Assembly: GCA_001548435.1 (NCBI GenBank)
Contig: AP017308.1
Span: 503,030-567,029, forward strand
Direction: 5' to 3'
Source of the DNA: Leptolyngbya sp. NIES-3755
GTDB taxonomy: Bacteria > Cyanobacteriota > Cyanobacteriia > Leptolyngbyales > Leptolyngbyaceae
Length of the DNA: 64,000 nucleotides
Shown in pieces: positions 6,153 to 30,884 of this stretch; position 1 is the stretch's first letter; every line of letters begins with the position of its first letter. A program made the translations under genes and the position numbers. The notes under the pieces were generated by a model. The model was not told the origin of the DNA and searched no databases. It worked only from the letters and a program-made list of their open reading frames with translations.

Positions 6153-7493
6153 ATGAGTAACCAGGCTTTCCCAACTCGTCTGAAAATCGGACGCGCTTTG
6201 TCTCTCGCAGTCATGACACTCACTGTTGGATTGCTGGCTGCCGCCTGTCAAGAAGCCGCCCCACCCACCGGACAAGGCGGAACCGCATCTCCAGGGGGAA
6301 CCTCTCCTGCTGCAAACACTGGAGGCGGAGGCTTAAAGATTGGATCGCTCCTGCCTTCGACTGGAGATCTCGCCTCGGTTGGACAACAGATGACCGCGGC
6401 AGTTCCCCTACTGGTTGAAACCGTGAATCAGTGCGGTGGCGTGAATGGTCAGCCTGTGACCTTGGTTCAAGTGGATGACCAGACCGATCCGGCTGCGGGT
6501 GCAGAAGGGATGACCCGACTAGCAGAACGCGAACGGGTCGCAGGTGTCGTTGGCTCGTTCGCAAGTAGTGTTTCGACCGCAGCACTCCCGATCGCAGTTC
6601 GGAACAAAGTGGTGCTAATTTCTCCGGGAAGTACAAGCCCAGTGTTCACACAACAGGCGAAAGAAAACAAATTCCAAGGCTACTGGGCAAGAACGGCTCC
6701 ACCGGATACCTATCAAGCACAAGCGTTGGCAAAATTGGCGAGTGAGCGCAACTTGAAAACCGCAGGCACGATCGTGATTAACAATGATTATGGCGTGGGC
6801 TTTGAGCGGGAATTTGTCAAGGCGTTTACAGCACTCGGTGGCAAGATTACGAATGAGGCAAGACCGACTCGGTACGATCCCAAAGCTACCACGTTTCAAA
6901 CGGAAGCTGCGGCAGCGTTTACAGGGAATCCACAAGCCGTTGCAGCCGTCTTATATGCGGACACGGGAAGCTTGATTGTGAAGTCGGCTTATGAGCAAGG
7001 AAGAAGCCAGAATTCTCAATTCCTGCTCACAGATGGGGTTTACTCTCAGGACTTTGTGGATAAGGTTGGTAAAGGTCAGAATGGACAATCGATCCTCGCA
7101 GGTGCGCTAGGAACGGTTCCAGGAGCGAGTGGAACGGGATTAGCCGCCTTTACGAAACTGTGGGAAGAAAAACAGAAACGTCCTTTAGCGGCTTATGCGC
7201 CTCATGCTTGGGATGCTGCTGCGATTTTGGTGTTAGCCGCGCAAGCAGCGAAATCGAACACAGGGGAAGCGATCAAAAATCAGTTGCGAGAAGTGACTAA
7301 TGCGCCTGGAGAAGAGGTTTCGGATGTGTGCAAAGGGTTGGAACTGTTGCGTCAAGGTAGACAAATTAACTATCAAGGGGCAAGCGGCAATGTCGATATC
7401 GATGAGGCTGGCGATGTCGTGGGTAGCTATGATGTTTGGACTGTAGGACCAGATGGCAAGCTGAAAACGATCGGGAAAGTAAATCCGAGATAA
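6153..7493 (+). CDS. ABC transporter periplasmic substrate-binding lipoprotein, LivJ/NatB branched-chain/neutral amino-acid type (orphan; no permease adjacent)
   Basis: Lipobox LAAAC followed by a Gly/Pro-rich linker, then a type-I periplasmic binding fold (LKIGSLLPSTGDLASVG...GSFASSVS...). Confidence 0.7.
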   Translation: MSNQAFPTRLKIGRALSLAVMTLTVGLLAAACQEAAPPTGQGGTASPGGTSPAANTGGGGLKIGSLLPSTGDLASVGQQMTAAVPLLVETVNQCGGVNGQPVTLVQVDDQTDPAAGAEGMTRLAERERVAGVVGSFASSVSTAALPIAVRNKVVLISPGSTSPVFTQQAKENKFQGYWARTAPPDTYQAQALAKLASERNLKTAGTIVINNDYGVGFEREFVKAFTALGGKITNEARPTRYDPKATTFQTEAAAAFTGNPQAVAAVLYADTGSLIVKSAYEQGRSQNSQFLLTDGVYSQDFVDKVGKGQNGQSILAGALGTVPGASGTGLAAFTKLWEEKQKRPLAAYAPHAWDAAAILVLAAQAAKSNTGEAIKNQLREVTNAPGEEVSDVCKGLELLRQGRQINYQGASGNVDIDEAGDVVGSYDVWTVGPDGKLKTIGKVNPR

Positions 7494-7565
7494 GAGAATG
7501 TGCGATCGTCGATGAAAGTTCTTGCGTGAGTTCAACGTTCAAACAAGAACTAATCTACGATCGCA

Positions 7566-8399
7566 TTAAGCCGACCAAGCCTCGCGAAAATCCGCATAGA
7601 GTGTTAATCCACCATCAATGAACAGCGTTTGCCCCGTAATGTAAGCGGCATCTTCTGAAGCGAGAAAGGCAACAGCGGCAGCCATTTCCTCAGTAGTTCC
7701 CGCACGAGACATCGGGATATGACTTTCTACAACGGCTTTCTTTTCTGGATCTTCGACCCACTCTTCATTAATTGGAGTCACAGTTGCACCCGGCGCGATC
7801 GCATTGACCCGAATTCTACGACCTGCATATTCAAGCGCCAGTGTTTTTGTTAGATTTTCCATTCCGCCTTTGCTCACCGAATAGCTCAGATACATCGGTC
7901 GCGGAATGATTTCGTGAACACTTGAGATATTGATAATTGTTCCAGGCTGATTGTGTGAAACAAAGTGTTTTAGAGCTTCCCGCGCACAGAGAAATGCACC
8001 GCGTAAGTTAATTGAAAGAATTCGATCGAACTCTTCAGTCGGAATTTCATGTGAAGCACACTCGGTTTGTACCCCTGCATTGTTGACTAAGATATCTAAG
8101 CTACCGAATGTCTCGATCGTCGTTTTGAACATTCTCAGAATGTCGTCTTCTTTTGAGACATCTCCTTGAATTAGAACTGTTTTGATCCCTTCAGGAGCTT
8201 TTTGGAGTGCCATTTTTTGGGTCTCTTCGGCTTCTTCGAGGCTTTTGCGGTAATTGATCACAATATTGCAGCCTTCTTGAGCCAATCGAATTGCGATCGC
8301 TTGTCCGATCCCTGAACTGGCTCCGGTAATGAGCGCGGTCTTTCCAGCGAGTCCTTTCATCACAGTTCTCCTTTGGGTCTGAGCGAACAGCGTGATCAT
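7566..8399 (-). CDS. SDR-family oxidoreductase (glucose-1-dehydrogenase-like)
   Basis: Cofactor site TGASSGIGQAIA, NNAG motif, and the catalytic YSVSK (YxxxK) tetrad region. Confidence 0.85.
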   Translation of the reverse strand: MITLFAQTQRRTVMKGLAGKTALITGASSGIGQAIAIRLAQEGCNIVINYRKSLEEAEETQKMALQKAPEGIKTVLIQGDVSKEDDILRMFKTTIETFGSLDILVNNAGVQTECASHEIPTEEFDRILSINLRGAFLCAREALKHFVSHNQPGTIINISSVHEIIPRPMYLSYSVSKGGMENLTKTLALEYAGRRIRVNAIAPGATVTPINEEWVEDPEKKAVVESHIPMSRAGTTEEMAAAVAFLASEDAAYITGQTLFIDGGLTLYADFREAWSA

Positions 8400-8461
8400 A
8401 CACTGGTCACTAAAATAGAAAAACGATAAATCACTTCAACAGGCGAAAATCTGTCCGTAGA

Positions 8462-9142
8462 GTGAGTCAAATTTTGTTAACTGCGATCGAGAATGACACC
8501 ATGACGGAACAAGACAAGCCTCGAAGCGTACCTCAGTTACATACCTCTGAACTATTGCAGAATCTATTGCAGCAACATTCTGGGGAGACGATTCGCTTAG
8601 GAGAATTGATCCAAAGTTTGGGCAGTCGTGCATTTGGTCCGACATTATTGCTTTGTGCATTACCGGAAGCATTACCGTTACCGATCGCAGGTGTGTCTGC
8701 GATTATTGGCACTCCATTATTTATTTTTTCCGTACAGCTCCTACTTGGATATCCTTCTCCTCAACTTCCAAAGTGGCTCTCTAATAAAACGTTTAGGCGT
8801 AAAGACTTTGAGAAAGCTGTGAGACAGATTTTGCGCTATTTGCACCGATTCGAGAAAATCATTCGTCCTCGCTGGCAGTTTGCAACAACTCCGATCGTAG
8901 AACGTTGGTTAGGATTACTCTTTGTCGTGCTTGCAGTGGTGATTATGCTGCCGATCCCGTTTGGGAATTTCTTGCCTGCGATCGCGATTGTGACGATTAG
9001 TTTGGGATTGATCGAGGCGGATGGAGTGTTGGTAGTCGCTGGCTCGATCGCATCGGTGATCATTTTGGTGATTATGGCAGGTGCGATCGTGACACTCTTC
9101 TCTTGGGTGATGCAATGGCTTAATCAATTCTTGAGACGCTGA
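8462..9142 (+). CDS. ExoD-family exopolysaccharide-synthesis membrane protein
   Basis: Matches the ExoD family pattern (LALPEALPLP..G..AIIGTPL...), 226 aa, multiple TM segments. Confidence 0.65.
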   Translation: MSQILLTAIENDTMTEQDKPRSVPQLHTSELLQNLLQQHSGETIRLGELIQSLGSRAFGPTLLLCALPEALPLPIAGVSAIIGTPLFIFSVQLLLGYPSPQLPKWLSNKTFRRKDFEKAVRQILRYLHRFEKIIRPRWQFATTPIVERWLGLLFVVLAVVIMLPIPFGNFLPAIAIVTISLGLIEADGVLVVAGSIASVIILVIMAGAIVTLFSWVMQWLNQFLRR

Positions 9143-9159
9143 GCGAAATCTTTCTTCGG

Positions 9160-10683
9160 GTGGAAACTTTCTATGTTCTTGAAACGGTAAGGTCAGTCTG
9201 GAATCTCGTATCGATCGTGGTTATGGAATTACAAGAACTCTTCAATGGAATCGTTGTTCGAGGCTTGTCTGGAGAGTTATCTGAGTTTTTTTCGACCAAA
9301 CTATTTACATTTGGTGGAAAGCAATTCTCGATCGGCTCTGTGGTCGAGATTCTGATTCAAGTTGTGATTGTTCTGATTATTGCGAATCTAACGAAGCAAC
9401 TTCTGAAAGAGAGAGTGTTTCCAGGGTTCGGGCTGAATGTCGGAACTCGCGAGTCACTTTCTACGATCGTGAGCTATATCGTTACGGTTATTGGATTTTT
9501 CGTTGTTGTTGAAACGACTGGAATTAATCTGAGTTCTCTTACCGTATTTGCAGGTGCGATCGGGATTGGGTTTGGGATTGGTTTGCAGAACATCACGAGC
9601 AATTTTATTAGTGGCATCACATTGTTGTTTGAGCAGCCTGTGAAGGTCGGTGACTATATTGAAGTCGATCAAATGGCGGGAGTTGTTGAAGAAATTTCGG
9701 TTCGCAGTACAACGATTCGGACGATCAATGGGGTGCATGTGATTGTGCCTAATAGTCGAGTGCTTGAGAATAGTGTGGTGAACTGGAACTATCGTGATCC
9801 AGAATCTCGATTAGTGATCCCGGTTTCAGTCGTAGATGAGAGTGATTCTCTGACTGTGATGGAAGCATTGTTGGCGGCTGCACGTCAGGAACCGAGAGTG
9901 TTAACTTTGCCATCCCCAGAGGTTTATTTCAAGGGATTAGATGTTGAGAATTCCATGCTGAAGTTTGAACTATTAGTGTGGATTGATCACCCGATCGAGA
10001 TGGATTCGATTAAAAGTGCATTGTATTTTTTGATTGAAGCAGAGTTTCGCGATCGCGATCTCGACACCAAAGCGGCTCCGACTGATATTGTGCTGAACGA
10101 TTTACCTACAATTGTTCAACTCTTACAAAATAAAACTCATCAAAATGGTTCAGCAACTCCAGTCATGCAGCCTGAAAAGCCGATTAGTGGTTGGCTTCTG
10201 CGCGATTTGCTGAAGAAAGTAAGCTATTTTCAACATTGTTCTGATGTAGAGCTTCGACAGGTGATCGAGAAAGGCTATCGTAAGCGATTGGCAGCGGGTG
10301 AAGTGATTGCACGAGAAAATGATCCAGGAGATTCGTTTTATCTCATTTTGTCGGGTGCGGTTGAAGTCGTGGTGGAATCTATCGATCGACAAGTTGCGGT
10401 TCGACGTGCGGGTGAATTTATCGGAGAGATGTCGCTTTTGTTGGGAACGCCTCGGAGTGCCACTTTACGCACAGTTGAGGATACGATTCTGTTCGTCGTA
10501 GATCATGGAAATCTTCAAAGCTTGCTCAGTAGTCATCAGGGATTGGCGGATCAAATTGCTGAGGAACTATCGCATCGGCAGGAGACACTTAAAAGTATCG
10601 GTGTGACTGTGATGGAAGCGACGAAAGAAGAATCGCGGTTTGAATTGATTCGGAAACAGATTCGATCGATCTTTGATCTGTAA
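9160..10683 (+). CDS. MscS-family mechanosensitive channel with C-terminal cyclic-nucleotide-binding domain (bCNG-type channel); start may be the internal ATG at 9223
   Basis: TM helices, the MscS pore/beta domain (GIGFGIGLQNITSNFISGITLLFEQPVKVGDYIEV...VRSTTIRT), then a CAP-type cNMP domain (FYLILSGAVEV...GEMSLLLGTPRSATLRTVE). Confidence 0.8.
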   Translation: METFYVLETVRSVWNLVSIVVMELQELFNGIVVRGLSGELSEFFSTKLFTFGGKQFSIGSVVEILIQVVIVLIIANLTKQLLKERVFPGFGLNVGTRESLSTIVSYIVTVIGFFVVVETTGINLSSLTVFAGAIGIGFGIGLQNITSNFISGITLLFEQPVKVGDYIEVDQMAGVVEEISVRSTTIRTINGVHVIVPNSRVLENSVVNWNYRDPESRLVIPVSVVDESDSLTVMEALLAAARQEPRVLTLPSPEVYFKGLDVENSMLKFELLVWIDHPIEMDSIKSALYFLIEAEFRDRDLDTKAAPTDIVLNDLPTIVQLLQNKTHQNGSATPVMQPEKPISGWLLRDLLKKVSYFQHCSDVELRQVIEKGYRKRLAAGEVIARENDPGDSFYLILSGAVEVVVESIDRQVAVRRAGEFIGEMSLLLGTPRSATLRTVEDTILFVVDHGNLQSLLSSHQGLADQIAEELSHRQETLKSIGVTVMEATKEESRFELIRKQIRSIFDL

Positions 10684-10760
10684 ATTCCCCTCTTGAGATA
10701 GATACTCAGCACCTTCACATTGCGTTAGTCTCGGCTACGAACTGATCGCGGCGATCGTAC

Positions 10761-11210
10761 ATGTTACTGCTGCTTTTCCATCTTGATGAAGATACTTATG
10801 CGATCGATAGCACTCATGTGATTGAAGTGTTGCCGATCGTGATGCTGCGAAAAGTTTATCAAGTGCCTGCTCATGTTTCAGGCGTGTTTCGATATCGTAA
10901 TTGCATTGTGCCTGTGGTGGATCTTTGTAAGCTGATTCGGGGTGAAGCTTCTCGATCGAGGTTTAGTACTCGCATCATTATGGTTCGATATCAGACTAGA
11001 AATGGTGAAGATGCTTATGTAGGATTGTTAGCCGAACGAGTAACTGAAACACTTAATTTACCTGATCTCAAGCCCACAGAACAAAGCCATGATGGTTCTT
11101 ATCTCGGTGAAGTCTTAATGCACGATAGTGAAATGATTCAGCGATTTCGGTGGGAATCTTTGATCACTGATGTTCAGAATGCAGCACTAATTTCGGGAGG
11201 GGCTTGTTGA
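10761..11210 (+). CDS. CheW-like coupling protein (WspB-equivalent)
   Basis: 149 aa single CheW-like domain (YAIDSTHVIEVLPI...VPAHVSGVFRYRNCIVPVVDL). Confidence 0.8.
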   Translation: MLLLLFHLDEDTYAIDSTHVIEVLPIVMLRKVYQVPAHVSGVFRYRNCIVPVVDLCKLIRGEASRSRFSTRIIMVRYQTRNGEDAYVGLLAERVTETLNLPDLKPTEQSHDGSYLGEVLMHDSEMIQRFRWESLITDVQNAALISGGAC

Positions 11211-11214
11211 GTGA

Positions 11215-12363
11215 ATGGTGCAAACAACGATTGAAGCAATGTTGAAACAGAAGATTGGATTAGATGCAAATAGTATTGGATCAAACGCGATCGCTTATGT
11301 CATTGATCAGCGTCGATCGCGCTGCGGTTCTCCCAATCTCAATGACTATTACGATCGTTTGCAACATTCACCCGAAGAACTTAATGCCTTAATTGAAGCG
11401 GTTGTTGTTCCTGAAACTTGGTTTTTTCGCGATCGAGAACCTTTTGCCTATCTAAAGCAATGGATTCAGACTGAATGGAGGTCAACTACGAAATTGCGTG
11501 TTCTTTCTGCACCTTGTTCGACCGGAGAAGAACCGTATTCGATCGCGATCACATTGCTTGAATCAGGACTATCAACACAGCAGTTTGGAATTGATGCGAT
11601 CGACATTAGCCAAACTGTTTTAGAAAGAGCGAAAAAGGCAACGTATTCAAAGCGATCGTTTCGAGGAAATGCGTCTGCTAACTTGACGTACTTCGAGAAA
11701 ATTGGCGAGCAATATCAAGTACGATCGCACATTCGTAATACGGTTCAATTTGTTCGAGAAAATCTTGTAGAACCTCGGTTTATTCTCGATCGACACTATG
11801 ATGTGATTTTTTGTCGAAACTTGTTGATTTATCTCGATCAAGAATCGCGATCGCAAGTGATGAAAATTCTCGATCGAGCTTTAGCGACTCCTGGCGTATT
11901 GTTCTTAGGTGCAGTAGAAACATCACAAGTTCCATTCAATACTTATCAACCAGTTCATCACTCTGGTGCATTTGCTTATCGAAAAGTAGAGCGATCAGAA
12001 CCCGCACCGCTCAGAATCCCAATTATTCAATCGTTACCGCCACTAAAGTCATTTCCAAAGCTTCCGAAATTAGAGCAAGTAAAACAATGTTTGGCACAAG
12101 GGAAACTCACCGAAGCAGCACGACTTTGTGAAGCTTATCTAATGAACGATCGAACCGATACAAACGCTTACTTTCTTCTCAGCAAAATCTATCAGGAACT
12201 TAAACAACTTCCTCAAGCAGAACAAGCTTTACAAAAAGCGATTTATCTTAATCCTAAATTCTATGATGCCTTGATTGAATTAGCAGTGTTGAAAGAGCAA
12301 CAAGGAGATTTTACAACCGCAAAGATTCTCAGAGCAAGAGTTCAAAGACTTCTCAATTTATAA
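11215..12363 (+). CDS. CheR-type MCP methyltransferase with C-terminal TPR repeats (WspC-like)
   Basis: CheR N-terminal and SAM-binding motifs (ETWFFRD, LSAPCSTGEEPYSIAI), followed by C-terminal TPRs. Confidence 0.85.
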   Translation: MVQTTIEAMLKQKIGLDANSIGSNAIAYVIDQRRSRCGSPNLNDYYDRLQHSPEELNALIEAVVVPETWFFRDREPFAYLKQWIQTEWRSTTKLRVLSAPCSTGEEPYSIAITLLESGLSTQQFGIDAIDISQTVLERAKKATYSKRSFRGNASANLTYFEKIGEQYQVRSHIRNTVQFVRENLVEPRFILDRHYDVIFCRNLLIYLDQESRSQVMKILDRALATPGVLFLGAVETSQVPFNTYQPVHHSGAFAYRKVERSEPAPLRIPIIQSLPPLKSFPKLPKLEQVKQCLAQGKLTEAARLCEAYLMNDRTDTNAYFLLSKIYQELKQLPQAEQALQKAIYLNPKFYDALIELAVLKEQQGDFTTAKILRARVQRLLNL

Positions 12364-12373
12364 GGTTATTCCT

Positions 12374-13969
12374 ATGCTAAACAGAATCACAAATCGAATT
12401 TTACTCGGTTATTCTATTCCGCTAATCTTTCTGATTATCCTGAGCGCGATCGTCTATCGATCAACAACCCGCACGTTTCAACTCCAAGCCCAAGCCCAAC
12501 AAGCTGAGCGAAATATCCGACAGACTAACGAACTTGTTGAAGGCATCAATCGGATGATTGGCGCGGGTCGGGGTTACTATATCTTTCCAGGGCAGCAGGA
12601 CTTTATCAAAACTTACAGTGCGGGACTGCGACAAGCAAACGAGAAGGCTCAGCAGTTACAATCGACCAATAATCCGATTGTTCGCAATGCAACAGGTGAA
12701 CTTTCGCAGTTAGTTGAACAGTATGATGATGTGTTTCAAAGTGCGTTTCGATCGATTAACCAGCGTAACTTGGCGCAAGCCAGAGCAGAACTCGCAAAGC
12801 CTAGAATTGTCGATGTGTTGGAACGACGCGATCGGGTGGTGAGTGAGCTTCAGAACGAACTCAATCAGATCAATCAATCGGTTGCTGAATCTCAAGGATT
12901 TTTGCTGAGATTGATTGTGATTGGAACGACGCTGACTGTGATTTCAACGATCATCGTTGGACTGTTGAATACTTTGCCTCTGAAGCGTCAACTGCCTAAA
13001 GTGGTGAATGCAGCGGAAGCGATCGCAGATGGCAATCTAACTCATTCGCTGGGTGAAACGAAAGATAAAACTGAGGTGGGTCAATTGCTGGCTGCATTTC
13101 AGAACATGATCAAAAGCTTGAATGGTTTGATTTCTCAGGCTCAGCGATCGGGCATTCAAATCAGTACTTCAACCACACAGATCGCGGCGGCTGGCAAACA
13201 ATTAGAAGCAACAGTTAACGAGCAATTTGCCTCAATGAATGAAGTGAATGCGACAGCACGACAGATTGCAATGACAGCAGGGAACTTAGCACGATCGATG
13301 GATGAGGTGGTGAAAACAGCCCAAGAAACAACTCATGCAGCGACAGATAGTCAGACGAACTTAGATAAGATTCAGTCTGCGATGCAAAGACTTGGATATG
13401 CGACGAATTCGATCTCATCTAAGTTGAAAGTGATGGATGAGAAAGCGAACAATATCAATACTGTTGTCACTACCATTACGAAGGTGGCGGATCAAACGAA
13501 TTTACTATCTCTGAATGCTGCGATCGAGGCAGAAAAAGCGGGAGAATATGGTGCTGGATTCGCTGTGGTTGCCCGTGAGATTCGACGTTTAGCCGATCAA
13601 GCCGCAGTTGCGACTCTGGAAATCGAACAGATGGTAAAAGAAATGCAATCCTCGGTTTCAACAGGTGTAATTGAAGTTGATAAATTTCGTGGGGAAGTGA
13701 AGCAATATGTGGATGAAGTTGGCAATGTGAGTCAGCAGATTGAAAGCTTTATCGGTGATGTGCAAGGACTGACACCCAGATTTGTTACCGTCAGTCAAAG
13801 CATGGATGAGCAATATCGAGGAGCCGAGCAGATTAGTACTGCGATCGCTCAATTGCGAGATGCGTCTCAACAAACTGTACAGTCGATTCAGGAAACGAAC
13901 TATGCACTGACTCAATTAGACGATGCGACACGGGGCTTGCAGCGTGAAATTTCACAATTCAAGGTGTAA
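12374..13969 (+). CDS. Methyl-accepting chemotaxis protein with CHASE3-like periplasmic sensor, HAMP and MA domains (WspA-equivalent)
   Basis: Two TM segments flank a region of about 150 aa with a GRGYYIF...Y motif like the CHASE3 domain of the histidine kinase at 53571. HAMP and the highly conserved MA signalling core (LLSLNAAIEAEKAGEYGAGFAVVAREIRRLADQ) follow. Confidence 0.85.
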   Translation: MLNRITNRILLGYSIPLIFLIILSAIVYRSTTRTFQLQAQAQQAERNIRQTNELVEGINRMIGAGRGYYIFPGQQDFIKTYSAGLRQANEKAQQLQSTNNPIVRNATGELSQLVEQYDDVFQSAFRSINQRNLAQARAELAKPRIVDVLERRDRVVSELQNELNQINQSVAESQGFLLRLIVIGTTLTVISTIIVGLLNTLPLKRQLPKVVNAAEAIADGNLTHSLGETKDKTEVGQLLAAFQNMIKSLNGLISQAQRSGIQISTSTTQIAAAGKQLEATVNEQFASMNEVNATARQIAMTAGNLARSMDEVVKTAQETTHAATDSQTNLDKIQSAMQRLGYATNSISSKLKVMDEKANNINTVVTTITKVADQTNLLSLNAAIEAEKAGEYGAGFAVVAREIRRLADQAAVATLEIEQMVKEMQSSVSTGVIEVDKFRGEVKQYVDEVGNVSQQIESFIGDVQGLTPRFVTVSQSMDEQYRGAEQISTAIAQLRDASQQTVQSIQETNYALTQLDDATRGLQREISQFKV

Positions 13970-13972
13970 GTC

Positions 13973-14635
13973 ATGGTCACGATCGAAGAAATCAGCGATT
14001 GTTGGAATCAGATCGGCGCAGAAGGCGATCGCAGTTGTGATCAGCTTAAACAGATGACGCATTGCCATAATTGCCCAGTGTTTGCGAAATCTGGAAGCTT
14101 GTTATTAGAGCGAGAAGTTCCGAGTGAGTATATTCAGGAATGGACGAACACGATCGCAGAACGTGGATCAGCCCTGAGTTTGCGATCGACTGAGGAAATG
14201 CTTTCACTGATTCTGTTCCGGTTGGGAAATGAACAGTTCGCAATTTCAGTACGATCGCTACAAGAAGTGATTCGTCTAGCTCGAATTCATACTCTGCCCC
14301 ATCGCAGCAATTCTCTATTTTTAGGTCTGACTAGCATTCGAGGCGAAATCTTACTTTGTGCATCTCTCAGAGAGTTTCTGAACTTAGAGCCTGCTGCATC
14401 ATCAGGACGCGAACAAATGCTAGTCGTGGGAACAACTCAGCGTAAATGGGTGTTTCCAGTCGATGAAGTGTATGGAATTCACCGCTATCCCTTACGAGAG
14501 ATTCAAGATCCGCCTGTTGTTCTGCTCAAAACAAATTCAGCTTATACACAAGGGATTGTTAACTGGAACGATCAGAAAGTGAACTATCTGAATGCAGAAT
14601 TGCTCATTGACACGCTTGATCGGAGATTGCTATGA
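13973..14635 (+). CDS. CheW-like coupling protein with N-terminal Cys-cluster extension (WspD-equivalent)
   Basis: CheW domain (LILFRLGNEQFAISVRSLQEV...). The N-terminal 40 aa carry C-x12-C-x8-C-H-N-C. Confidence 0.75.
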   Translation: MVTIEEISDCWNQIGAEGDRSCDQLKQMTHCHNCPVFAKSGSLLLEREVPSEYIQEWTNTIAERGSALSLRSTEEMLSLILFRLGNEQFAISVRSLQEVIRLARIHTLPHRSNSLFLGLTSIRGEILLCASLREFLNLEPAASSGREQMLVVGTTQRKWVFPVDEVYGIHRYPLREIQDPPVVLLKTNSAYTQGIVNWNDQKVNYLNAELLIDTLDRRLL

Positions 14636-17430
14636 GCTATTCAATGCGCGATCTGTTTCAGCAAGAAACGAGTACTCAAGTCGATCGCTTAAAACAATGT
14701 TTAACTCGTTTACAGCAACAGCCTGATCAAAAAGATGAGATTGATACGGCTTTGCATTCGATTCGTGCGATCGTGGGCGCGGCTCATTTGATCGAATTTA
14801 CGGCTGCGATTCATTTAGCAGAGGTGATGCAATCTTGTTTGAATGCCGCTTATCAGGATCGGCGACCTTTAACTCCTGAGAGACTAGAAGCATTGCTGCA
14901 TGGCTGTACTTTGCTTTCTCAGATGAGTCAGCTTGAGGAAACGGAACAATGGTTGTCGAATCATGGCGAGGATCTAGAGAAAACAGAAAAGTCGATCGAG
15001 GAAACATCGTCTGCTGAAGTGAATGGATCATTGAACAATGGTGTGCCCTCACCCCCAGCCCCTCTCCCAGAAGGAGAGGGGGGCAAGAATTCTAGTTCCC
15101 TCTCCCCTAGGGAGAGGGTTAGGGTGAGGGCTACAACCGATTCAAACGAAGCGAATACACCTCAATTGCTGATAGAAGAGCCACCTGAGTCTTCTCCTCA
15201 AAGCCTTGTTCAAGATGATCCGGAATTGATGGAATTGTTTCGGCAAGAAGTCGAAGCACAAACGATTACATTGAATCGGGGATTAGTCGCGATCGAAGCT
15301 CATCCCAATTCCCGTCAAGAGCTTGAATCCCTCATGAGAGCCGCACACTCAATCAAAGGAGCCGCTCGAATTGTTGGGCTAGATGTTGCAGTCGAATTAG
15401 CGCATCAGATGGAGGATTGCTTTGTAGCGGCTCAGAAACAATCTTTTAAGATCAATGCAGCCATGATCGATGCGTTGTTTCGCGGTGTCGATCTAATTCA
15501 ATCGATTAGCCAAACCCAGAATGTTCAACAATGGCTTTCTCAACATCGTTCTGACCTTGAATCTGTTCATCAATTGCTGTCTTCTGATGCTGCTCCCGTT
15601 TCACAGCCCGTTCCACAACCTGTTCCTACTCCTGCACCGATTTCTCCAAAGATCGAACCTCCAGAGCCTGAAGTGAACACACAGAGCAATACACGTGAAC
15701 GCGATGCCTCCGGCACACGGGAACGTGACCGAGTGGTTCGCATTAGTGCCGATAACTTAAATCGCATTGTTGGACTGGCTGGTGAATCAATGGTTGAAGC
15801 GTATTGGCTCCAGCCCTTTGCAGAATCATTGATGGAACTCCGATCGAAACAAATCGCGCTCTCAAAAGCTCTAGAAGATCTGCAACAATCGCATCCGATC
15901 GAGCAGTTAGAGACACTGCGGCAACAAGAGCGAGAATGTCGGGATTCATTAAGCGATCGTATTGCTGAACTCGGTGAATACATTCGACGGACTGATAATT
16001 TGTCCGATCGCTTATATCGAGAGGTGATTCAATCTCAGATGCGACCGTTTGCGGATGGAGTGCAGGGTTTCCCACGAATGGTACGAGACTTGTCGCGACA
16101 GATTGGAAAGCAAGTCAACTTCTCGATCGTTGGAGAGAATACGCCTGTCGATCGAGATATTTTGACCAAGCTCGAAGCTCCGATTACTCATATTTTGCGA
16201 AATGCGATCGATCACGGAATCGAGTCGCCTGAAGACCGGATTAAAGCTGGAAAATCCGCAGAGGGAACGATTCAACTCGAAGCTTCTCATCGGGGTGGAA
16301 TGTTGATGATTAGCATTTCTGATGATGGAAAAGGGATAGATGTCGATCGGGTTCGCAAACAGGTGATTCGTCGCCATCTTGCACCGCCAGAATTTGCGAG
16401 ACGAATGAGCCACGGTGAATTGATGGAATTTCTCTTTTTGCCTGGTTTTTCGCTCTCGAAACAAGTGACAGAGCTATCCGGGCGCGGTGTTGGATTGGAT
16501 ATTGTGAAAGCGATGGCGCAGGAGGTCGGAGGTTCTGTTCGTGCAACCTCTTCACTCGGTTCGGGTACAAGTTTTCACTTGCAGTTACCGCTTACCTTGT
16601 CAGTCGTGCGAACATTGCTGGTCGAGGTTTCGGGTGAACAATATGCGTTCCCTTTGTCGCGGATCGATCGAATTCTCAGTCTCGATCGAGCTTCGATTTC
16701 TGTGGTCGAAAATCAGCCTTACTTTACCTTTAATGATCAACATATTGGATTGATTTCGCTGAATCAAGTGTTTGATCTACAGCAATCTAGTTCACTGTCT
16801 GAATCGCTGTGTGTGATTGTTTTAAGTTATCAATCAGCGCAGTATGGATTAATTGTCGATCGAACATTGGGAGAGCGAGAATTAGTAGTACGCCCGCTCG
16901 ATCCACGTCTTGGAAAAGTTCAAGATATCGGTGCTGCATCATTGATGAGTGATGGTTCATTAGTTCTGATTGTCGATGTTTCGGATTTAGTTCGATCGAT
17001 TAATAAACTATTAGATGCTGGAAAGCTCACAGCACCACGCACCGTTGAGACTGAACAACCGAAAAAACGTATTCTTGTTGTCGATGATTCGATTACAGTA
17101 CGGGAAGTAGAGCGAAAATTATTAGAAAAACACGGATACAGTGTGGATGTCGCGATCGATGGAATGGAAGGTTGGAATGCGGTTCGCAATCAGTCTTATG
17201 ATTTAGTCATTAGTGATGTTGATATGCCTAGAATGAATGGAATCGAGTTAATTCAACAGATTAAGAGTCATGCTCGACTACGATCGACTCCGGTAATCGT
17301 TGTGTCTTATCGCGATCGAGAATCCGATCGATTGCAAGGATTAGATGCAGGAGCCAATTATTATTTAACAAAAAATAGTTTTCAAGATGATACTTTGATT
17401 CAAGCTGTCGTTGATTTGATTGGGCAGTAA
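14632..17430 (+). CDS. Hybrid CheA histidine kinase: degenerate Hpt, canonical Hpt (HSIKGAA), HATPase_c, CheW-like and C-terminal receiver (WspE-like)
   Basis: Two Hpt-like segments, H-box/N/G1/G2 kinase motifs, CheW-like domain, C-terminal REC (ILVVDDS...DLVISDVDMPRMNG). 4-bp overlap with the upstream gene. Confidence 0.9.
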   Translation: MSYSMRDLFQQETSTQVDRLKQCLTRLQQQPDQKDEIDTALHSIRAIVGAAHLIEFTAAIHLAEVMQSCLNAAYQDRRPLTPERLEALLHGCTLLSQMSQLEETEQWLSNHGEDLEKTEKSIEETSSAEVNGSLNNGVPSPPAPLPEGEGGKNSSSLSPRERVRVRATTDSNEANTPQLLIEEPPESSPQSLVQDDPELMELFRQEVEAQTITLNRGLVAIEAHPNSRQELESLMRAAHSIKGAARIVGLDVAVELAHQMEDCFVAAQKQSFKINAAMIDALFRGVDLIQSISQTQNVQQWLSQHRSDLESVHQLLSSDAAPVSQPVPQPVPTPAPISPKIEPPEPEVNTQSNTRERDASGTRERDRVVRISADNLNRIVGLAGESMVEAYWLQPFAESLMELRSKQIALSKALEDLQQSHPIEQLETLRQQERECRDSLSDRIAELGEYIRRTDNLSDRLYREVIQSQMRPFADGVQGFPRMVRDLSRQIGKQVNFSIVGENTPVDRDILTKLEAPITHILRNAIDHGIESPEDRIKAGKSAEGTIQLEASHRGGMLMISISDDGKGIDVDRVRKQVIRRHLAPPEFARRMSHGELMEFLFLPGFSLSKQVTELSGRGVGLDIVKAMAQEVGGSVRATSSLGSGTSFHLQLPLTLSVVRTLLVEVSGEQYAFPLSRIDRILSLDRASISVVENQPYFTFNDQHIGLISLNQVFDLQQSSSLSESLCVIVLSYQSAQYGLIVDRTLGERELVVRPLDPRLGKVQDIGAASLMSDGSLVLIVDVSDLVRSINKLLDAGKLTAPRTVETEQPKKRILVVDDSITVREVERKLLEKHGYSVDVAIDGMEGWNAVRNQSYDLVISDVDMPRMNGIELIQQIKSHARLRSTPVIVVSYRDRESDRLQGLDAGANYYLTKNSFQDDTLIQAVVDLIGQ
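15046..15130. repeat. GC-rich nested-palindrome mini-element inserted in-frame in the cheA inter-Hpt linker (small-dispersed-repeat/MITE-like)
   Basis: CCCTCACCC...CCCCTCTCCCAGAAGGAGAGGGG...CCCTCTCCCCTAGGGAGAGGG...GGGTGAGGG. Outer arms pair with each other and two inner hairpins form. It is translated as PSPPAPLPEGEGGKNSSSLSPRERVRVRA inside an otherwise ordinary CheA linker. Confidence 0.55.
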
Positions 17431-17433
17431 GCG

Positions 17434-18408
17434 ATGAGAATTGCGATCGTCAATGATTTAAGTTTGGCTGTAGAAGCCTTGCGCCGAACGGTCAAACAAG
17501 TTCCACAGCATGAGATTGCTTGGGTCGCTTACACAGGTCTGGAAGCGGTGAATAAATGCGCCCACGATCGCCCTGACTTGATTTTGATGGATTTATTTAT
17601 GCCTGAGATGGATGGCATTGAGGCGACAAAGCTGATTATGCAGCGATCGCCCTGTGCGATTTTGGTTGTTACGGCAGATGTGCAACATAGTTCTGCAAAA
17701 GTGTTTGAAGCAATGGGCTATGGTGCGTTAGATGCGGTGAATACGCCAACTTTAGGGAAAGAAAATGCTCACTTGTTGCTATCGAAAATTAAGACGATCG
17801 GGAAATTGATCGGAAAGTCCGAGTTTGTACCAATTCAGGCTAAAGTCCCTCTAGTGGTGATTGGTGCTTCGACTGGAGGACCAAAAGCGATCGTGACTAT
17901 TCTCTCTCAGTTACCACCCGATTTTGGAGCCGCGATCGTGATTGTTCAGCATGTCGATGTGCAGTTCGCCGCTGGCATGATTGATTGGTTAGATCAGCAA
18001 ACCGTATTAAAAGTGAAAAAAGCGCAGGTTGGCGATCGACCCACGAAAGGTATGGTTTTATTCGCATCGACTAATGATCATCTCTGTTTACAGGCGAATG
18101 GAACATTGACTTATACGCCGTATCCAAAGAGCTATCCTTACCGTCCCTCGGTGGATGTTTTCTTCAAAAGCGTGGCGCAGTATTGGAGCGATCGAGGAAC
18201 TGCGATTTTGCTCACAGGCATGGGACGCGATGGCGCAGAAGGCTTGAAAGCGTTGCGGCTTCAGGGATGGTATACGATCGCTCAAAGTGAATCGAGTTGT
18301 GTCGTTTATGGAATGCCTAAAGCTGCGATCGAGCTAAATGCTGCGGTCGATGTTCTGACTCCCGAAGCGATCGCAACCGCTTTATTGCACCGTTCACATC
18401 AACATTAG
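17434..18408 (+). CDS. cheB: CheB protein-glutamate methylesterase (REC plus methylesterase; WspF-like)
   Basis: REC ([14 protein letters not shown]) plus CheB_methylest ([14 protein letters not shown]...VQHVD) with catalytic Ser/His/Asp. Confidence 0.9.
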
Positions 18409-18410
18409 TC

Positions 18411-19901
18411 ATGAGCGATTCTATTACTGTTCTCCTCATCGACGATCAAGCCATCATCAGCGAAGCCATCCAGAAAATGTTGGCTCCAGAATCGGATATC
18501 AAATTCCACTATTGCAACAATCCACTAGAAGCGCTAAAGGTTGCGAAACAGTGCAATCCGACTGTGATTTTGCAAGATTTGGTGATGCCGCAGATGGATG
18601 GATTGTTACTGGTGCGATTTCTGCGATCGCAAGATGCTCCAACGGCTGATGTTCCTCTAATTGTGCTATCGAGCAAAGAAGAACCTGTGATTAAAGCTCA
18701 AGCGTTTGAACTAGGGGCAAATGATTATTTGGTGAAATTGCCCGATCGTGTTGAGTTGATTGCTCGAATTCGCTATCACTCCAGAGCTTATATCAACTTA
18801 CGCAAACGTCAGGAAGCAGAAGCGCAATTACGCGATGAGAACTTGCGGCAAGCTCAATACATTGAACAAGTGAATAAGCTAACGAAAGCAGCAGTTTCTG
18901 TTGAAGATAATAGTTTTAGACCAGAAGATTTAGAAGAAGTCAGCGATCGACCTGATGAACTGGGTCAACTCTCGCGGGTGTTTGTGCAAATGGTCGATAC
19001 GGTGAACACACGAGAACAAGAACTAAAGCGATTGAATGAGTCGTTTGCTCGATTCTTCCCTGGTGAATATCTGCAATTTCTGCGAAAAGAATCGGTGACA
19101 GAGGTGCAGTTAGGCGACTATGTAAGTAAAACGATGGCAGTGATGTTTAGTGATATTCGAGCATTTACAAGTATCTCTGAATCGATGACACCGCAGGAGA
19201 ATTTCGCTTTCGTGAATGCTTACTTGAAGCGTGTCAGTCCAGAAATTCGCAATCACTACGGCATTATTGTGAAATTCTTAGGTGACGGAATGATGGCAGT
19301 GTTTCCAGATGGTGCGGATGATGCGGTCGCGGCGGGCGTTGCGAAACAGCTTCGGGTGCAGGAATACAATGTCGATCGAATGGAACGAGGCTTTTTACCT
19401 GTGCAAGTTGGAATTGGAATTCATGTCGGGCACATGATGTTAGGCATGGTCGGGGAAACAAATCGAATTCAAGGTGATGCGTTCTCAGATAATGTGAATC
19501 TGACCTCTCGACTCGAAGGATTGACCAAATACTACGGCGTATCAATGCTGATTTCTGGTCAGACTTTGGAGTATTTGAGCAATCCGGATCAATATCAATT
19601 TCGGTTTCTCGATCGAGCGATCGTCAAAGGTCGAATTGAACCGATTACGGTGTACGAAGTGTTAGATGCTGAAACTGAAGAGAATCGTCAAATCAAACTA
19701 CAAACTCAATCGATTTACGATCAAGGAATTGAACACTATCGACAACAGGAATTTGATCAAGCGAGATCTCGTTTTAAGGAAGTTCTAGAGGCAAATCCAG
19801 ACGATAAAACGGCGCGGCTGTATGTCGATCGCGTCACTGAATTGCTCGATCGAGGAGTGCCCGAAGATTGGACGGATGCTTGGGCGTTTAGCGAGAAATA
19901 A
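18411..19901 (+). CDS. Response regulator fused to class III adenylyl/guanylyl cyclase (CHD) domain with C-terminal TPR-like tail
   Basis: REC (LLIDDQ...ILQDLVMPQMDG); coiled-coil linker; CHD (MFSDIRAFTSISE...KFLGDGMMAVF...GDAFSDNVNLTSRLE). Lys and Asp sit at the adenine-specifying positions. Confidence 0.8.
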   Translation: MSDSITVLLIDDQAIISEAIQKMLAPESDIKFHYCNNPLEALKVAKQCNPTVILQDLVMPQMDGLLLVRFLRSQDAPTADVPLIVLSSKEEPVIKAQAFELGANDYLVKLPDRVELIARIRYHSRAYINLRKRQEAEAQLRDENLRQAQYIEQVNKLTKAAVSVEDNSFRPEDLEEVSDRPDELGQLSRVFVQMVDTVNTREQELKRLNESFARFFPGEYLQFLRKESVTEVQLGDYVSKTMAVMFSDIRAFTSISESMTPQENFAFVNAYLKRVSPEIRNHYGIIVKFLGDGMMAVFPDGADDAVAAGVAKQLRVQEYNVDRMERGFLPVQVGIGIHVGHMMLGMVGETNRIQGDAFSDNVNLTSRLEGLTKYYGVSMLISGQTLEYLSNPDQYQFRFLDRAIVKGRIEPITVYEVLDAETEENRQIKLQTQSIYDQGIEHYRQQEFDQARSRFKEVLEANPDDKTARLYVDRVTELLDRGVPEDWTDAWAFSEK

Positions 19902-19969
19902 AGGAACGCGATCGTTTTCCAAATCTGCATTAAGATGGTCATGCCCTCGTTACCCGGTTCTCGATCGTT

Positions 19970-20920
19970 ATGTCTGACCTTCAAGCAACGTTCTCCAGCC
20001 TTCGACAAGCTCTTGATCAAATTGTGGTGGGTCAAAGCGCATTAGTACAGCAGCTTTTAGTGGCGTTGCTGTCTGGCGGGCATGTGATTTTAGAAGGTGT
20101 GCCGGGAACTGGAAAAACGCTTTTAGTCAAAGTAATGGCGCAATTAGTTCGATCGGAGTTTCGCCGCGTTCAACTGACTCCAGACATTCTGCCATCTGAT
20201 ATTTTAGGAACGAATATTTTTGACCTGAACACTCGCAACTTTATTTTGAAAAAAGGTCCCGTGTTCACGCAGATTCTACTTGCAGATGAAGTCAACCGAA
20301 CGCCACCCAAAACACAATCGGCACTGCTCGAAGCAATGGAAGAACAGCAAGTCACTCTAGACGGTGAGAGCTTGCCTTTGCCTGAGTTCTTCTGGGTAAT
20401 TGCAACTCAGAATTCATTGGAGTTTGAAGGAACTTATCCACTACCAGAGGCGCAACTCGATCGCTTTTTGTTCAAGCTAATGGCGAACTATCCCGATCCA
20501 GCAGCAGAAAAGAAAATGTTGCTCAATCATCAAGCAGGATTCCAAGCGAAACGGCTCAATCTCAGTAGACTTCAACCGATCGCATCTGTGGACGAAGTTT
20601 TGAAAGCGCGGCAACTGGTACGATCGCTAACTGTTGAAGAACCGATTCTCGATTATTTACTATCTGTGGTTCAGAAAACTCGCCAACATCCTGATCTAGT
20701 GTTAGGTGCTTCTCCTCGATCGGCAGTCGCCTGGTTGAATGTGAGTAAAGCTCAAGCTTGGTTATCCGGTCGGAACTATGTGACTCCGGATGATATTAAA
20801 GCGGTTGCTCCTCCACTGTTGCGCCATCGATTAATTCTACGTCCTGAAGCTCAGTTAGATGGAATTAATGTCGATTCGGTGATCAATGCCATTCTCAATC
20901 AAGTTGCTGTTCCTCGTTAG
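19970..20920 (+). CDS. MoxR-family AAA+ ATPase
   Basis: Walker A GVPGTGKT and the MoxR signature (ILLADEVNRTPPKTQSALLEAMEE). Confidence 0.85.
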   Translation: MSDLQATFSSLRQALDQIVVGQSALVQQLLVALLSGGHVILEGVPGTGKTLLVKVMAQLVRSEFRRVQLTPDILPSDILGTNIFDLNTRNFILKKGPVFTQILLADEVNRTPPKTQSALLEAMEEQQVTLDGESLPLPEFFWVIATQNSLEFEGTYPLPEAQLDRFLFKLMANYPDPAAEKKMLLNHQAGFQAKRLNLSRLQPIASVDEVLKARQLVRSLTVEEPILDYLLSVVQKTRQHPDLVLGASPRSAVAWLNVSKAQAWLSGRNYVTPDDIKAVAPPLLRHRLILRPEAQLDGINVDSVINAILNQVAVPR

Positions 20921-20923
20921 CTT

Positions 20924-22228
20924 ATGATTCCTTCACTCCGAACTTATGGATTATTGCTAGTCGGTGGCGCGATCGCTGCTGTTCTATTCTTGTTCAATCC
21001 GCAATTGTCGATCGTCGTTCTATTACTCTTCGATCTGATTGTTCTCGGATTAGCATTCTTCGATAGTTCACGAGTGAAACCGCATCGGGTGAAAGTCGAT
21101 CGACAAGTGGCATCCAGATTATCGATCGGGCGAGATAACTTAGTCAGCCTCAATGTTGAATCTGTAGCGCGATCGACAGAAATTCGCATCTATGATCAGT
21201 ATCCGATCGAGTTCTCTGTTTCATCAATGCCGCTAGCTCTAAAGCTTGGAGCAAATCTGAAACAGCAACTTTCCTATACGGTGAATCCTTCCTATCGAGG
21301 AGAGTATCACTGGAAAGACATTCAAGTGCGTCAATTAAGTCCGTGGCGACTCGCTTGGCACAGTTGGAAGATTCCACAAGAGCAAAAAGTTTCGGTTTAT
21401 CCAGATTTACTTGGACTACGATCGCTTTCAATCCGATTAACCTTAGAATCTTCTGGCTCAATTCGTCGCGCCCGTCGATTAGGCATTGGAACTGAATTCT
21501 CAGAGCTTCGAGAATATGGCATTGGAGATGATCCACGGTTTATTGATTGGAAAGCAACTGCACGACGTGGACAACCGTTAGTTCGAGTATTGGAACCAGA
21601 ACAAGAGCAGACTTTGATTATTTTGCTCGATCGCGGTCGGTTGATGACTTCTCAAGTTCAAGGATTAGCGCGATTTGATTGGGGACTGAATGCGACACTA
21701 GCACTGGCACTGGCGGGATTACATCGAGGCGATCGAGTTGGGGTTGGCGTATTCGATCGACAAGTTCAAACATGGATTCCTCCAGAACGCGGACAGGCAC
21801 ATTTGAATCATTTAATCGAGCGCTTAACTCCGATTCAACCAGAGATTCTAGAGCCAGATTATTTAGGTGCAGTTACAACCTTAGTCAATCAACAGGCTCG
21901 ACGGGCTTTAGTGGTTGTGATTACCGATATTGTTGATACTACAGCCTCATCCGAACTATTAGCAGCATTGGGACGATTAACACCGAGGTACTTACCATTC
22001 TGCGTTACCTTGCGAGATCCACAAGTTGATCAACAAGCACATACAGTAACCGAGGATTTGCCCTCGACTTACGAAAGAGCCGTAGCACTCGATTTGATTG
22101 CTCAGCGACAGATTGCATTTAGTACATTAAAACAACGAGGTGTATTAGTGTTGGATGCACCTGCGAATCAAATTACAGAAGAATTAGTCGATCGATATCT
22201 TCAACTCAAAGCCAGAAACCAACTTTAA
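20924..22228 (+). CDS. DUF58-family protein (vWA-like partner of MoxR) with N-terminal TM helices
   Basis: Immediately follows MoxR with a 3-bp gap; DUF58 motif region (EFSELREYGIGDDPRFIDWKATARRGQPLVRV). Confidence 0.75.
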   Translation: MIPSLRTYGLLLVGGAIAAVLFLFNPQLSIVVLLLFDLIVLGLAFFDSSRVKPHRVKVDRQVASRLSIGRDNLVSLNVESVARSTEIRIYDQYPIEFSVSSMPLALKLGANLKQQLSYTVNPSYRGEYHWKDIQVRQLSPWRLAWHSWKIPQEQKVSVYPDLLGLRSLSIRLTLESSGSIRRARRLGIGTEFSELREYGIGDDPRFIDWKATARRGQPLVRVLEPEQEQTLIILLDRGRLMTSQVQGLARFDWGLNATLALALAGLHRGDRVGVGVFDRQVQTWIPPERGQAHLNHLIERLTPIQPEILEPDYLGAVTTLVNQQARRALVVVITDIVDTTASSELLAALGRLTPRYLPFCVTLRDPQVDQQAHTVTEDLPSTYERAVALDLIAQRQIAFSTLKQRGVLVLDAPANQITEELVDRYLQLKARNQL

Positions 22229-30737: not shown

Positions 30738-30809
30738 GTTTGATTAGCTCAATTTGGTAGAGCAGTCGTCTGAAATCGATGTGTACAGGTTCGAGTCCTG
30801 TATCAAACA
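30738..30809 (+). tRNA. Aberrant tRNA-like gene (perfect acceptor, D and T arms; GAA in the anticodon loop, but the anticodon stem pairs poorly: 4 bp with an 8-nt loop). Possible pseudo-tRNA-Phe.
   Basis: Hand-folded: acceptor GTTTGAT/ATCAAAC, D-arm GCTC-AATTTGGTA-GAGC, T-arm ACAGG-TTCGAGT-CCTGT. The anticodon region GTCGTCTGAAATCGATG does not form the canonical 5-bp stem. Confidence 0.4.
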
Positions 30810-30811
30810 CC

Positions 30812-30884
30812 CGAAAGTTAGCTCAACTGGCAGAGCAATCGACTGAAAATCGATGTGTCGCAGGTTCAACTCCTGCACTTTCCA
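30812..30884 (+). tRNA. tRNA-Phe (GAA), CCA encoded
   Basis: Hand-folded: D-arm GCTC-AACTGGCA-GAGC, anticodon stem ATCGA/TCGAT with loop CTGAAAA, T-arm GCAGG-TTCAACT-CCTGC, acceptor CGAAAGT/ACTTTCC (1:72 C:C mismatch), then ACCA. Confidence 0.7.

Follow-up and report, generated by a model that had tools for sequence, protein, structure and literature searches.

We analysed the gene at 18411..19901 (forward strand) of a 64,000-nucleotide stretch of Leptolyngbya sp. NIES-3755 DNA (contig AP017308.1, positions 503,030 to 567,029 of the forward strand; hereafter the window, in which coordinates are given). This open reading frame, with an ATG start and 496 aa in length, encodes a predicted adenylyl cyclase, probably the response regulator at the output end of a chemosensory pathway of the Wsp type ('alternative cellular function', ACF). 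In place of the GGDEF domain of WspR it has a HAMP-like linker, a class III cyclase homology domain (CHD) and a TPR-like tail. The protein is 100% identical to the Leptolyngbya sp. NIES-3755 protein named 'adenylate cyclase, family 3' at NCBI, and the Lys/Asp (K/D) specificity pair described below is in itself ordinary, confirming that annotation. Proteins of this kind have been noted before and left uncharacterised, and it is the context that is moderately interesting.

The cyclase gene closes a Wsp-type operon

The cyclase gene is the last of a seven-gene operon that spans 10761 to 19901 on the forward strand. A WspB-like cheW (10761..11210; Pfam CheW, syntenic) is followed by a WspC-like cheR with C-terminal TPR (11215..12363; Pfam CheR and TPR), a chemoreceptor gene mcp of WspA-like topology (12374..13969; Pfam), a second, longer cheW (WspD-like, 220 aa; 13973..14635; Pfam CheW), a WspE-like hybrid cheA (14632..17430; Pfam, NCBIfam CheA) and a WspF-like cheB methylesterase gene (17434..18408; Pfam, NCBIfam), which leaves the cyclase gene at the position of wspR. 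The chemoreceptor has transmembrane (TM) segments at aa 9-27 and 180-198, a periplasmic helical sensor of about 150 aa with a weak CHASE3-like match (27.1 bits), a HAMP domain and an MCP signalling domain; the hybrid CheA carries two Hpt domains, HATPase and CheW-like domains and a C-terminal receiver (REC), and CheB matches NCBIfam PRK12555 at 443 bits, above cut-off, versus 284 bits for PRK00742. Successive genes are separated by 4, 10, 3, -4, 3 and 2 nt, the start of cheA overlapping the second cheW by 4 nt and the cheB stop codon lying 2 nt before the cyclase start. Scanned for promoters and terminators, the region 7400-20400 yielded fewer sites than its shuffled controls did, and the scan did not define the operon boundaries.

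MCP, two CheW, CheR-TPR, hybrid CheA-REC, CheB and a multidomain response regulator together make up the Wsp-type/ACF gene set, and CheR-TPR is a hallmark of ACF clusters (PMC3447774). Wsp in the strict sense has a c-di-GMP output, whereas the output domain here is a mononucleotidyl cyclase. The operon has no stand-alone CheY, and therefore the cyclase is its only dedicated output; no CheY/flagellar or PatA/pilus output is found in the operon either. From this arrangement we infer that the hybrid CheA serves as the kinase for the cyclase receiver. The known counterpart is WspR (PA3702) of Pseudomonas aeruginosa and P. syringae, a diguanylate cyclase and response regulator encoded at the end of the Wsp chemosensory operon. 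Like WspR, the cyclase is encoded by the last gene, after cheB, beside the genes for an MCP, two CheW, CheR-TPR and hybrid CheA-REC; unlike WspR, it lacks the GGDEF domain and the I-site, and its predicted product is cAMP, not c-di-GMP.

The receiver and stalk are of the WspR type

Pfam matches and an AlphaFold2 (AF2) model (monomer, mean pLDDT 92) give the protein the architecture REC, stalk, HAMP-like linker, CHD and TPR-like tail; no TM segment was found in the 496 aa, as for a soluble protein. The receiver covers aa 5-121 (18423..18773), with a PF00072 match at aa 7-121 that exceeds the cut-off (72.7 bits). Its acidic pocket is formed by D11 and D12, the predicted phospho-acceptor is D56 (18576-18578), and S87 and K109 complete the set, all five being invariant across 10 orthologues. 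The preliminary description, made from the letters of the sequence, had credited the receiver with a full DD/D/T/K set; the two pocket acids, the acceptor and the Lys are as described, while the 'T' position is occupied by Ser, the same residue as in WspR.

The best sequence matches in the PDB are the receiver and stalk of WspR from P. aeruginosa (3bre, E 7.9e-48) and P. syringae (3i5a), and the next receiver match, PleD, reaches just 54.8 bits. By BLASTP, receiver plus stalk is 59% identical to WspR of both Pseudomonas species over 140 aa, versus 25-28% identity of the receiver to the CheA and CheB receivers of its own operon. The alignment with WspR extends to aa 145 and places D56 on the acceptor motif LQDLVMP of WspR. 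Alpha-5 of the receiver runs into the WspR-like stalk as one long helix (aa 113-165; 18747..18905), modelled by AF2 at pLDDT 91-94. The C-terminal half matches PF00211, and neither a PF00990 match nor a GG[DE]EF motif was found in the protein. Since the GGDEF catalytic domain is absent, the cyclase is not a member of the WspR family; it bears a WspR-type receiver in the WspR position.

Specificity residues predict an adenylyl cyclase

The CHD occupies aa 237-417 (19119..19661), and PF00211 (Guanylate_cyc) matches aa 240-413 at 74.7 bits against a cut-off of 21.9. The preliminary description had read this domain as a catalytically competent adenylyl rather than guanylyl cyclase on the strength of three motifs, all of which are present: FSDIRAFT at aa 246-253, VKFLGDGMMAVF at aa 287-298 and GDAFSDNVNLTSRLE at aa 355-369. 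The metal-binding Asp of the first is D248 (19152-19154), the adenine-specifying Lys is K288 (19272-19274) and the second specificity position is D356 (19476-19478). Their register fits the canonical base-specifying sites, as K288 stands 4 residues N-terminal to the second metal Asp D292 (19284-19286), and D356 stands 7 residues N-terminal to the transition-state Asn N363, which R367 follows. With the phosphate contacts R352 and K406 also present, the catalytic set is complete. Adenylyl cyclases conserve K and D at the two positions, while guanylyl cyclases have Glu together with C/S/T/H/A/G, and Cya2 is of the E-G type (PMC4215837). An HMMER alignment with PDB 6fht put K288 opposite Cya2 residue 488 and D356 opposite the Gly of the E-G pair, with no Glu or Cys in the cyclase at either position. 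The 6fht structure is a phytochrome fused to the Cya2 cyclase with an engineered E488K change, an adenylyl-cyclase variant, and this single change turns Cya2 ATP-specific (PMC5995499).

The K, the D and the metal Asp are kept in 120/120 closest homologues, a conservation far beyond chance, and D-K-D-R-D-N-R-K stands at the eight functional positions in all 15 orthologous loci. In the wider family sharing the CHD and tail (n=86), K fills position 1 in 84 members, and position 2 has D in 69 and T/S in the other 17, either of which is an adenylyl-cyclase signature; no member has Glu at position 1 or C or G at position 2, and D248, D292, N363 and R367 are invariant. K/D pair, intact catalytic set and orthologue invariance thus support the adenylyl reading at the sequence level, and no sequence criterion of a class III adenylyl cyclase is wanting. 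Because of the K/D rule and the E488K switch of Cya2, the prediction from sequence that the enzyme would prefer ATP over GTP is well founded.

Foldseek with the AF2 model ranked WspR first, followed by Cya2 (2w01), CyaB (3r5g), CyaC (1wc0) and photoactivated cyclases, with target-normalised TM-scores of 0.78-0.84 for the three named cyclases, CyaB giving 0.84 (rmsd 1.8). A Thr marker was reportedly described by Cann et al. in 2003 for the bicarbonate-responsive class IIIb. Membership in class IIIb was considered and set aside: position 356 is Asp here in place of Thr, which suggests that the enzyme is not of the bicarbonate-responsive type, yet T/S occurs at this position in the 17 of 86 cassette relatives mentioned above.

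The output cassette was likely taken from HAMP-CHD cyclases

Between stalk and CHD lies a HAMP-like linker (18870..19049), comprising a Pfam match at aa 154-198 and a second helix that continues to aa 213. The preliminary description, incomplete more than mistaken, had passed over this linker as well as the WspR-type identity of the regulator. The HAMP model (PF00672) scores 22.8 bits, below its cut-off of 25, and matches 9/10 orthologues at E<=0.01; AF2 helices at 171-178 and 183-213 are compatible with HAMP. A clear HAMP in the cassette relatives and the matches in the orthologues support the view that aa 154-198 is HAMP-like. The linker leads to a short AF2 helix (218-223) before the CHD, within the segment FARFFPGEY, which aligns with the FGRY transducer motif of Cya2. 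Beyond the CHD, the C-terminal tail (aa 423-496; 19677..19898) is modelled as three helices (423-444, 448-461 and 466-481) and a short strand, equivalent to about 1.5 TPR repeats. Its best score is that of TPR_16 (24.2 bits against a cut-off of 32.7, match aa 436-471), and TPR_2 matches in 6/10 orthologues. The tail had been described beforehand as TPR-like over approximately 90 aa; its character stands, below threshold, and its length is about 75 aa. In NCBIfam no specific family was found for the cyclase, just generic receiver matches below cut-offs.

Full-length orthologues with 67-97% identity occur in Leptolyngbya, Phormidesmis, Calothrix, Scytonema, Nostoc, Anabaena, Dolichospermum, Oscillatoria and Microcoleus. 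Among the 150 best matches in a library clustered at 50% identity, a single protein (P0121, 66% identical) aligned over the full length, and the REC-HAMP-CHD-tail architecture is thus essentially one cyanobacterial orthologue group. By comparison, aa ~178-496 share 50-66% identity with the C-terminal parts of numerous larger proteins, whose inputs include dCache-HAMP, PAS, GAF, glutaminase-HAMP, kinase and other receivers. The relatives without REC that align from about aa 178 have a bona fide HAMP (45-58 bits), and the TPR-like tail is kept together with the CHD in many unrelated architectures. These cyanobacterial HAMP-CHD cassette cyclases share the AS2 helix of HAMP, the CHD and the TPR-like tail with the protein, and differ from it in having membrane-sensor, PAS, GAF or kinase inputs, not a WspR-type receiver; they are the likely donor of the output cassette. 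In a 617-aa orthologue variant, an inserted PAS_4 domain of some 120 aa separates the HAMP-like linker from the CHD (L015:10001-11854; P0043, P0044, P0048 and others).

WspR-type receivers carry several kinds of output

A scan of one genome per species with receiver-derived patterns yielded 80 loci (numbered L), whose flanks were compared by tblastn. In most of them, che genes of the window type flank the WspR-type receiver. Type A, with the window-type CHD, K/D and the TPR-like tail, comprises 15 loci (L001-L015), mainly from cyanobacteria with a few unclassified metagenome-assembled genomes; cheB and cheA lie immediately upstream in 12/15, L012 has cheB alone, and L003 comes without upstream DNA.

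Type B comprises 19 loci (L017-L019, L021-L024, L026, L027, L029, L031, L035, L036, L044-L047, L057, L068) from Acidobacteriota, Desulfobacterota, Moduliflexus, Thiotrichales, Magnetococcus and two cyanobacteria. Their CHD has Glu/Gly (E/G) at the specificity positions (Glu/Ser or Glu/Thr in two) and shares 52-70% identity with the guanylyl cyclase domain of Cya2. At least 9 of these loci, e.g. L018, L022, L023, L031, L044-L047 and L057, adjoin Wsp-type che genes, and their residues predict chemosensory pathways with cGMP output. Type C, with a class IIIa-like CHD (PF00211, 221 bits), K/D and an HNOBA-like linker, is found at 6 loci in Microcoleus and other cyanobacteria (L028:9749-11089, L030:9749-11080, L033, L040, L060, L061), of which L028, L030, L040 and L060 adjoin che genes. 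A PP2C/SpoIIE phosphatase output is attached to the WspR-type receiver in 36/80 loci (L020, L025, L032, L034, L037-L039, L041-L043, L049-L056, L059, L062-L066, L069-L080). These proteins of about 395-400 aa occur in Planctomycetota, Desulfobacterota, Elusimicrobia, Verrucomicrobiota and some cyanobacteria, most of them beside the same che gene set. GGDEF outputs account for 2 loci, one of which, L058, is a homologous cluster in the canonical order MCP-W-R-W-A-B-RR, with 49-50% identity in CheA and CheB.

In a neighbour-joining tree, unbootstrapped and based on only about 140 receiver columns, the receivers of types A-C, the PP2C and GGDEF proteins and both Pseudomonas WspR formed one tight clade, well separated from the CheA and CheB receivers. 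Within it the output types intermingle, type A being placed with PP2C-type proteins of cyanobacteria. This is most simply explained if output domains were exchanged repeatedly on a conserved receiver/stalk chassis. As the receiver carries both kinds of cyclase, K/D and E/G are real alternatives in this regulator family, and the preliminary K/D call gains substance from this setting.

Proposed signalling mechanism and alternative readings

In the proposed pathway, the two-TM chemoreceptor and the two CheW would control the hybrid CheA, with CheR-TPR and CheB providing adaptation. Phosphorylated CheA would transfer its phosphate to D56 of the WspR-type receiver, and the signal would pass through the alpha-5/stalk helix and the HAMP-like linker to the transducer segment of the cyclase. 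This segment may set the geometry of the CHD, presumably an obligate homodimer, and so alter the rate of cAMP synthesis from ATP. By analogy with WspR, phosphorylation would most likely activate the cyclase. The cAMP produced would act on proteins binding cyclic nucleoside monophosphates (cNMP), with the channel encoded upstream, described below, as the leading candidate.

Several points weigh against this reading. The pathway steps draw on sequence, genomic context and a monomer model, and the HAMP and TPR assignments both stand under Pfam cut-offs. The gene order is W-R-MCP-W-A-B-RR, with the first three genes permuted relative to the MCP-W-R-W-A-B-RR of Pseudomonas, the orthologous cyclase of L006 has no che genes within 10 kb, and the receiver tree has the limits given with it. 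In addition, substrate preference deduced from K/D is usually but not always right, as mutational conversions are often imperfect (PMC4215837).

The best-surviving alternative, which we consider unlikely, is an opposite polarity, in which phosphorylation of D56 would turn the cyclase off, or would only relocalise or oligomerise it. WspR is activated by phosphorylation, and the 59% identity of receiver and stalk to WspR makes this analogy an argument against inverted polarity. In favour of the alternative, nothing in the sequence fixes the sign of regulation; in engineered cyclases the HAMP/linker register can invert the sign, and one-residue differences in the linker change behaviour (PMC5995499).

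It is very unlikely that the receiver is no substrate of the neighbouring CheA, being served by another kinase or acting independently of phosphorylation, with the adjacency an inherited gene order. The solitary cyclase of L006 fits such a view, and one WspR study, by its title, is said to deal with phosphorylation-independent regulation of WspR. Against it, the spacing of 2 nt to cheB and of -4 to 10 nt across the operon suggests co-translation, the adjacency to cheB and cheA is kept across cyanobacteria and, for this receiver type, across many phyla with four different output domains, and the phospho-acceptor pocket is invariant.

A guanylyl or dual-specificity (ATP and GTP) cyclase, despite the Lys/Asp pair, is likewise highly improbable. 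In its favour, the closest solved catalytic domain by sequence is that of the guanylyl cyclase Cya2 (2w01, E 2.8e-22), sister regulators on the same receiver type bear Cya2-like E/G domains, and specificity residues do not always fully dictate preference (PMC4215837). However, identity to the Cya2 CHD is about 30%, versus 52-70% for the E/G group, K288 and D356 are invariant in all 120 homologues with no Glu at position 1 in the 86 family members, and a Lys at this site suffices for an ATP-specific Cya2 (PMC5995499). That the CHD has no catalytic function and serves as a regulatory module or scaffold, or that the protein is mainly a phosphate sink, is scarcely credible. Other proteins do contain degenerate CHD domains, yet here the eight catalytic and substrate-binding residues are all in place and invariant across orthologues.

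A cyclic nucleotide-gated channel gene adjoins the operon

For the cyclase acting as the output of the Wsp-type pathway, a candidate effector is encoded at 9160..10683 (+). Pfam identified the product as an MscS-like channel with a C-terminal cNMP-binding domain, i.e. of bCNG type (bacterial cyclic nucleotide-gated), with MS_channel_2nd at 81.8 bits, cNMP_binding at 74.7 bits and three TM segments. Its phosphate-binding cassette GEFIGEMSLLLGTPRSAT is intact and the GE...RSA motif is present. The gene ends 77 nt upstream of the first cheW on the same strand. This architecture is exactly that of the bCNG channels (Caldwell 2010 and Malcolm 2012, as cited in PMC13591265), whose physiological role is stated to be unknown in a 2026 review (PMC13591265); it is the gene neighbourhood from which we link them to a chemosensory cyclase.

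Within the fetched flanks, a cNMP-domain gene was present at 7/40 cyclase-type loci versus 0/38 PP2C/GGDEF-type loci, a linkage with Fisher p = 0.012 in a test that ignores phylogenetic non-independence. Three arrangements occur, with the gene upstream on the same strand, downstream on the opposite strand, or between cheA and cheB. In the reverse test, 2/3 close metagenome bCNG orthologues lay directly upstream of the same cluster, n=3 being too few for statistics. Evidence on the other side includes, besides the phylogenetic caveat, the lineage restriction of the linkage (4/15 type-A loci), one close bCNG orthologue that is unlinked, and paralogues of 40-43% identity that are unlinked as well. 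A role of the channel as effector of the cyclase is therefore suggestive and lineage-restricted, and we put it forward tentatively. More doubtful by a little is the complete route, in which a Wsp-type array in filamentous cyanobacteria would control cAMP synthesis through the cyclase, and the cAMP would gate the adjoining bCNG channel.

In Iningainema tapete (L022:7550-8935), a bCNG-type gene (MscS and cNMP-binding) lies between cheA and cheB, and the output there is an E/G cyclase. A cAMP/cGMP signature in the phosphate-binding cassettes was sought and rejected, as RSA and RTA occur next to both K/D and E/G cyclases. An ExoD (exopolysaccharide synthesis) family gene at 8462-9142 (+) precedes the bCNG gene by 17 nt in the same orientation, and the two may share a transcript; ExoD genes are also found in L001 and L083, and are absent from the other loci.

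Other features of the window

Downstream of the cyclase gene, after 68 nt, a MoxR-type AAA ATPase gene and a 434-aa single-TM open reading frame (DUF58 label unconfirmed) occupy 19970-22228 (+). The MoxR gene recurs in L001 and L083 and the 434-aa frame in L001; because this recurrence is limited to the closest relatives, the pair is probably an unrelated operon. The region at 1012-2040 is an isiA/IsrR iron-stress locus, in which an IsrR antisense RNA (1405-1582, -; Rfam, 118.7 bits) lies opposite a 342-aa CP43-like (photosystem II family) open reading frame (1012-2040, +). Two abutting tRNA genes (30738-30887, +) both have GAA (Phe) anticodon loops, and ARAGORN leaves the first untyped, with 'ga' at position 35 as its anticodon call; this points to a tandem duplicate whose anticodon arm is aberrant. 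A CHASE3-GAF-histidine kinase gene is located at 53571-55508 (+), with a clear CHASE3 domain (120 bits, versus the 27.1 bits of the operon chemoreceptor).

Relation to known systems and significance

Two known cyanobacterial cyclases are close points of comparison. Cya2 of Synechocystis PCC 6803 (2w01; chimera 6fht) matches the fold with a target-normalised TM-score of 0.78, and both enzymes extend C-terminally past the core, with a part that Cya2 requires for its activity (PMC5995499). Unlike the cyclase, with its K-D pair and control by REC, Cya2 has an E-G pair and is CHASE2/membrane-regulated, at an identity of about 30%. CyaC of Spirulina/Anabaena (1wc0) also matches the fold at 0.78, although sequence kinship is distant (E 1.7e-11). 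This enzyme is said, in work of Kasahara and Ohmori from 1999, to be a class III adenylyl cyclase controlled by two-component phosphotransfer; it is a REC-HK-REC-CHD hybrid with K/T (class IIIb-type) residues, encoded outside a che operon.

Receiver-fused mononucleotidyl cyclases were listed in 2012 among the response regulators of CheR-TPR/ACF clusters (PMC3447774). In Phormidesmis priestleyi BC1401, a 'Wsp-like' cluster was described with a cNMP-binding gene, wspB-C-A-D-E-F and a class 3 adenylate cyclase (Chrismas et al. 2016, PMC4971617); WspR was taken as missing, GGDEF homologues were sought elsewhere, and the regulators were called unclear. That cluster is orthologous to the one described here, its cyclase homologue (P0019) being 78% identical; the 2016 report is a genome note without identification of the WspR-type receiver, analysis of specificity residues or experiments. 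It also lists Leptolyngbya boryana as a carrier of the Wsp system. In the literature outside subscription-only papers we found no functional study of a cyanobacterial Wsp-like/cAMP system, these two reports being the only relevant ones met with, and neither an Arthrospira genome paper nor a paper on Dgc2 of L. boryana contained anything relevant. To judge by their titles, Nostoc motility papers that mention 'adenylate cyclase' seem to refer to two-hybrid assays, an unrelated use.

The analysis identifies in the cyclase the true counterpart of WspR for a cyanobacterial pathway of the Wsp type that was read in 2016 as having no WspR, and in the WspR-type receiver and stalk a chassis for at least 4 outputs, namely c-di-GMP, predicted cAMP, predicted cGMP and PP2C phosphatase. 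The context makes both the output of the pathway and the function of the bCNG channel directly testable. If the proposed link to the channel is true, it would amount to a bacterial cascade from receptor through cyclic nucleotide to ion channel and to a first physiological role for bCNG channels, while the same chassis in sister lineages would drive cGMP synthesis, through Cya2-like E/G domains, or a PP2C phosphatase. cAMP affects cyanobacterial motility, and if confirmed, the pathway would link surface or chemical sensing in filamentous cyanobacteria to cAMP via a genetically tractable operon.

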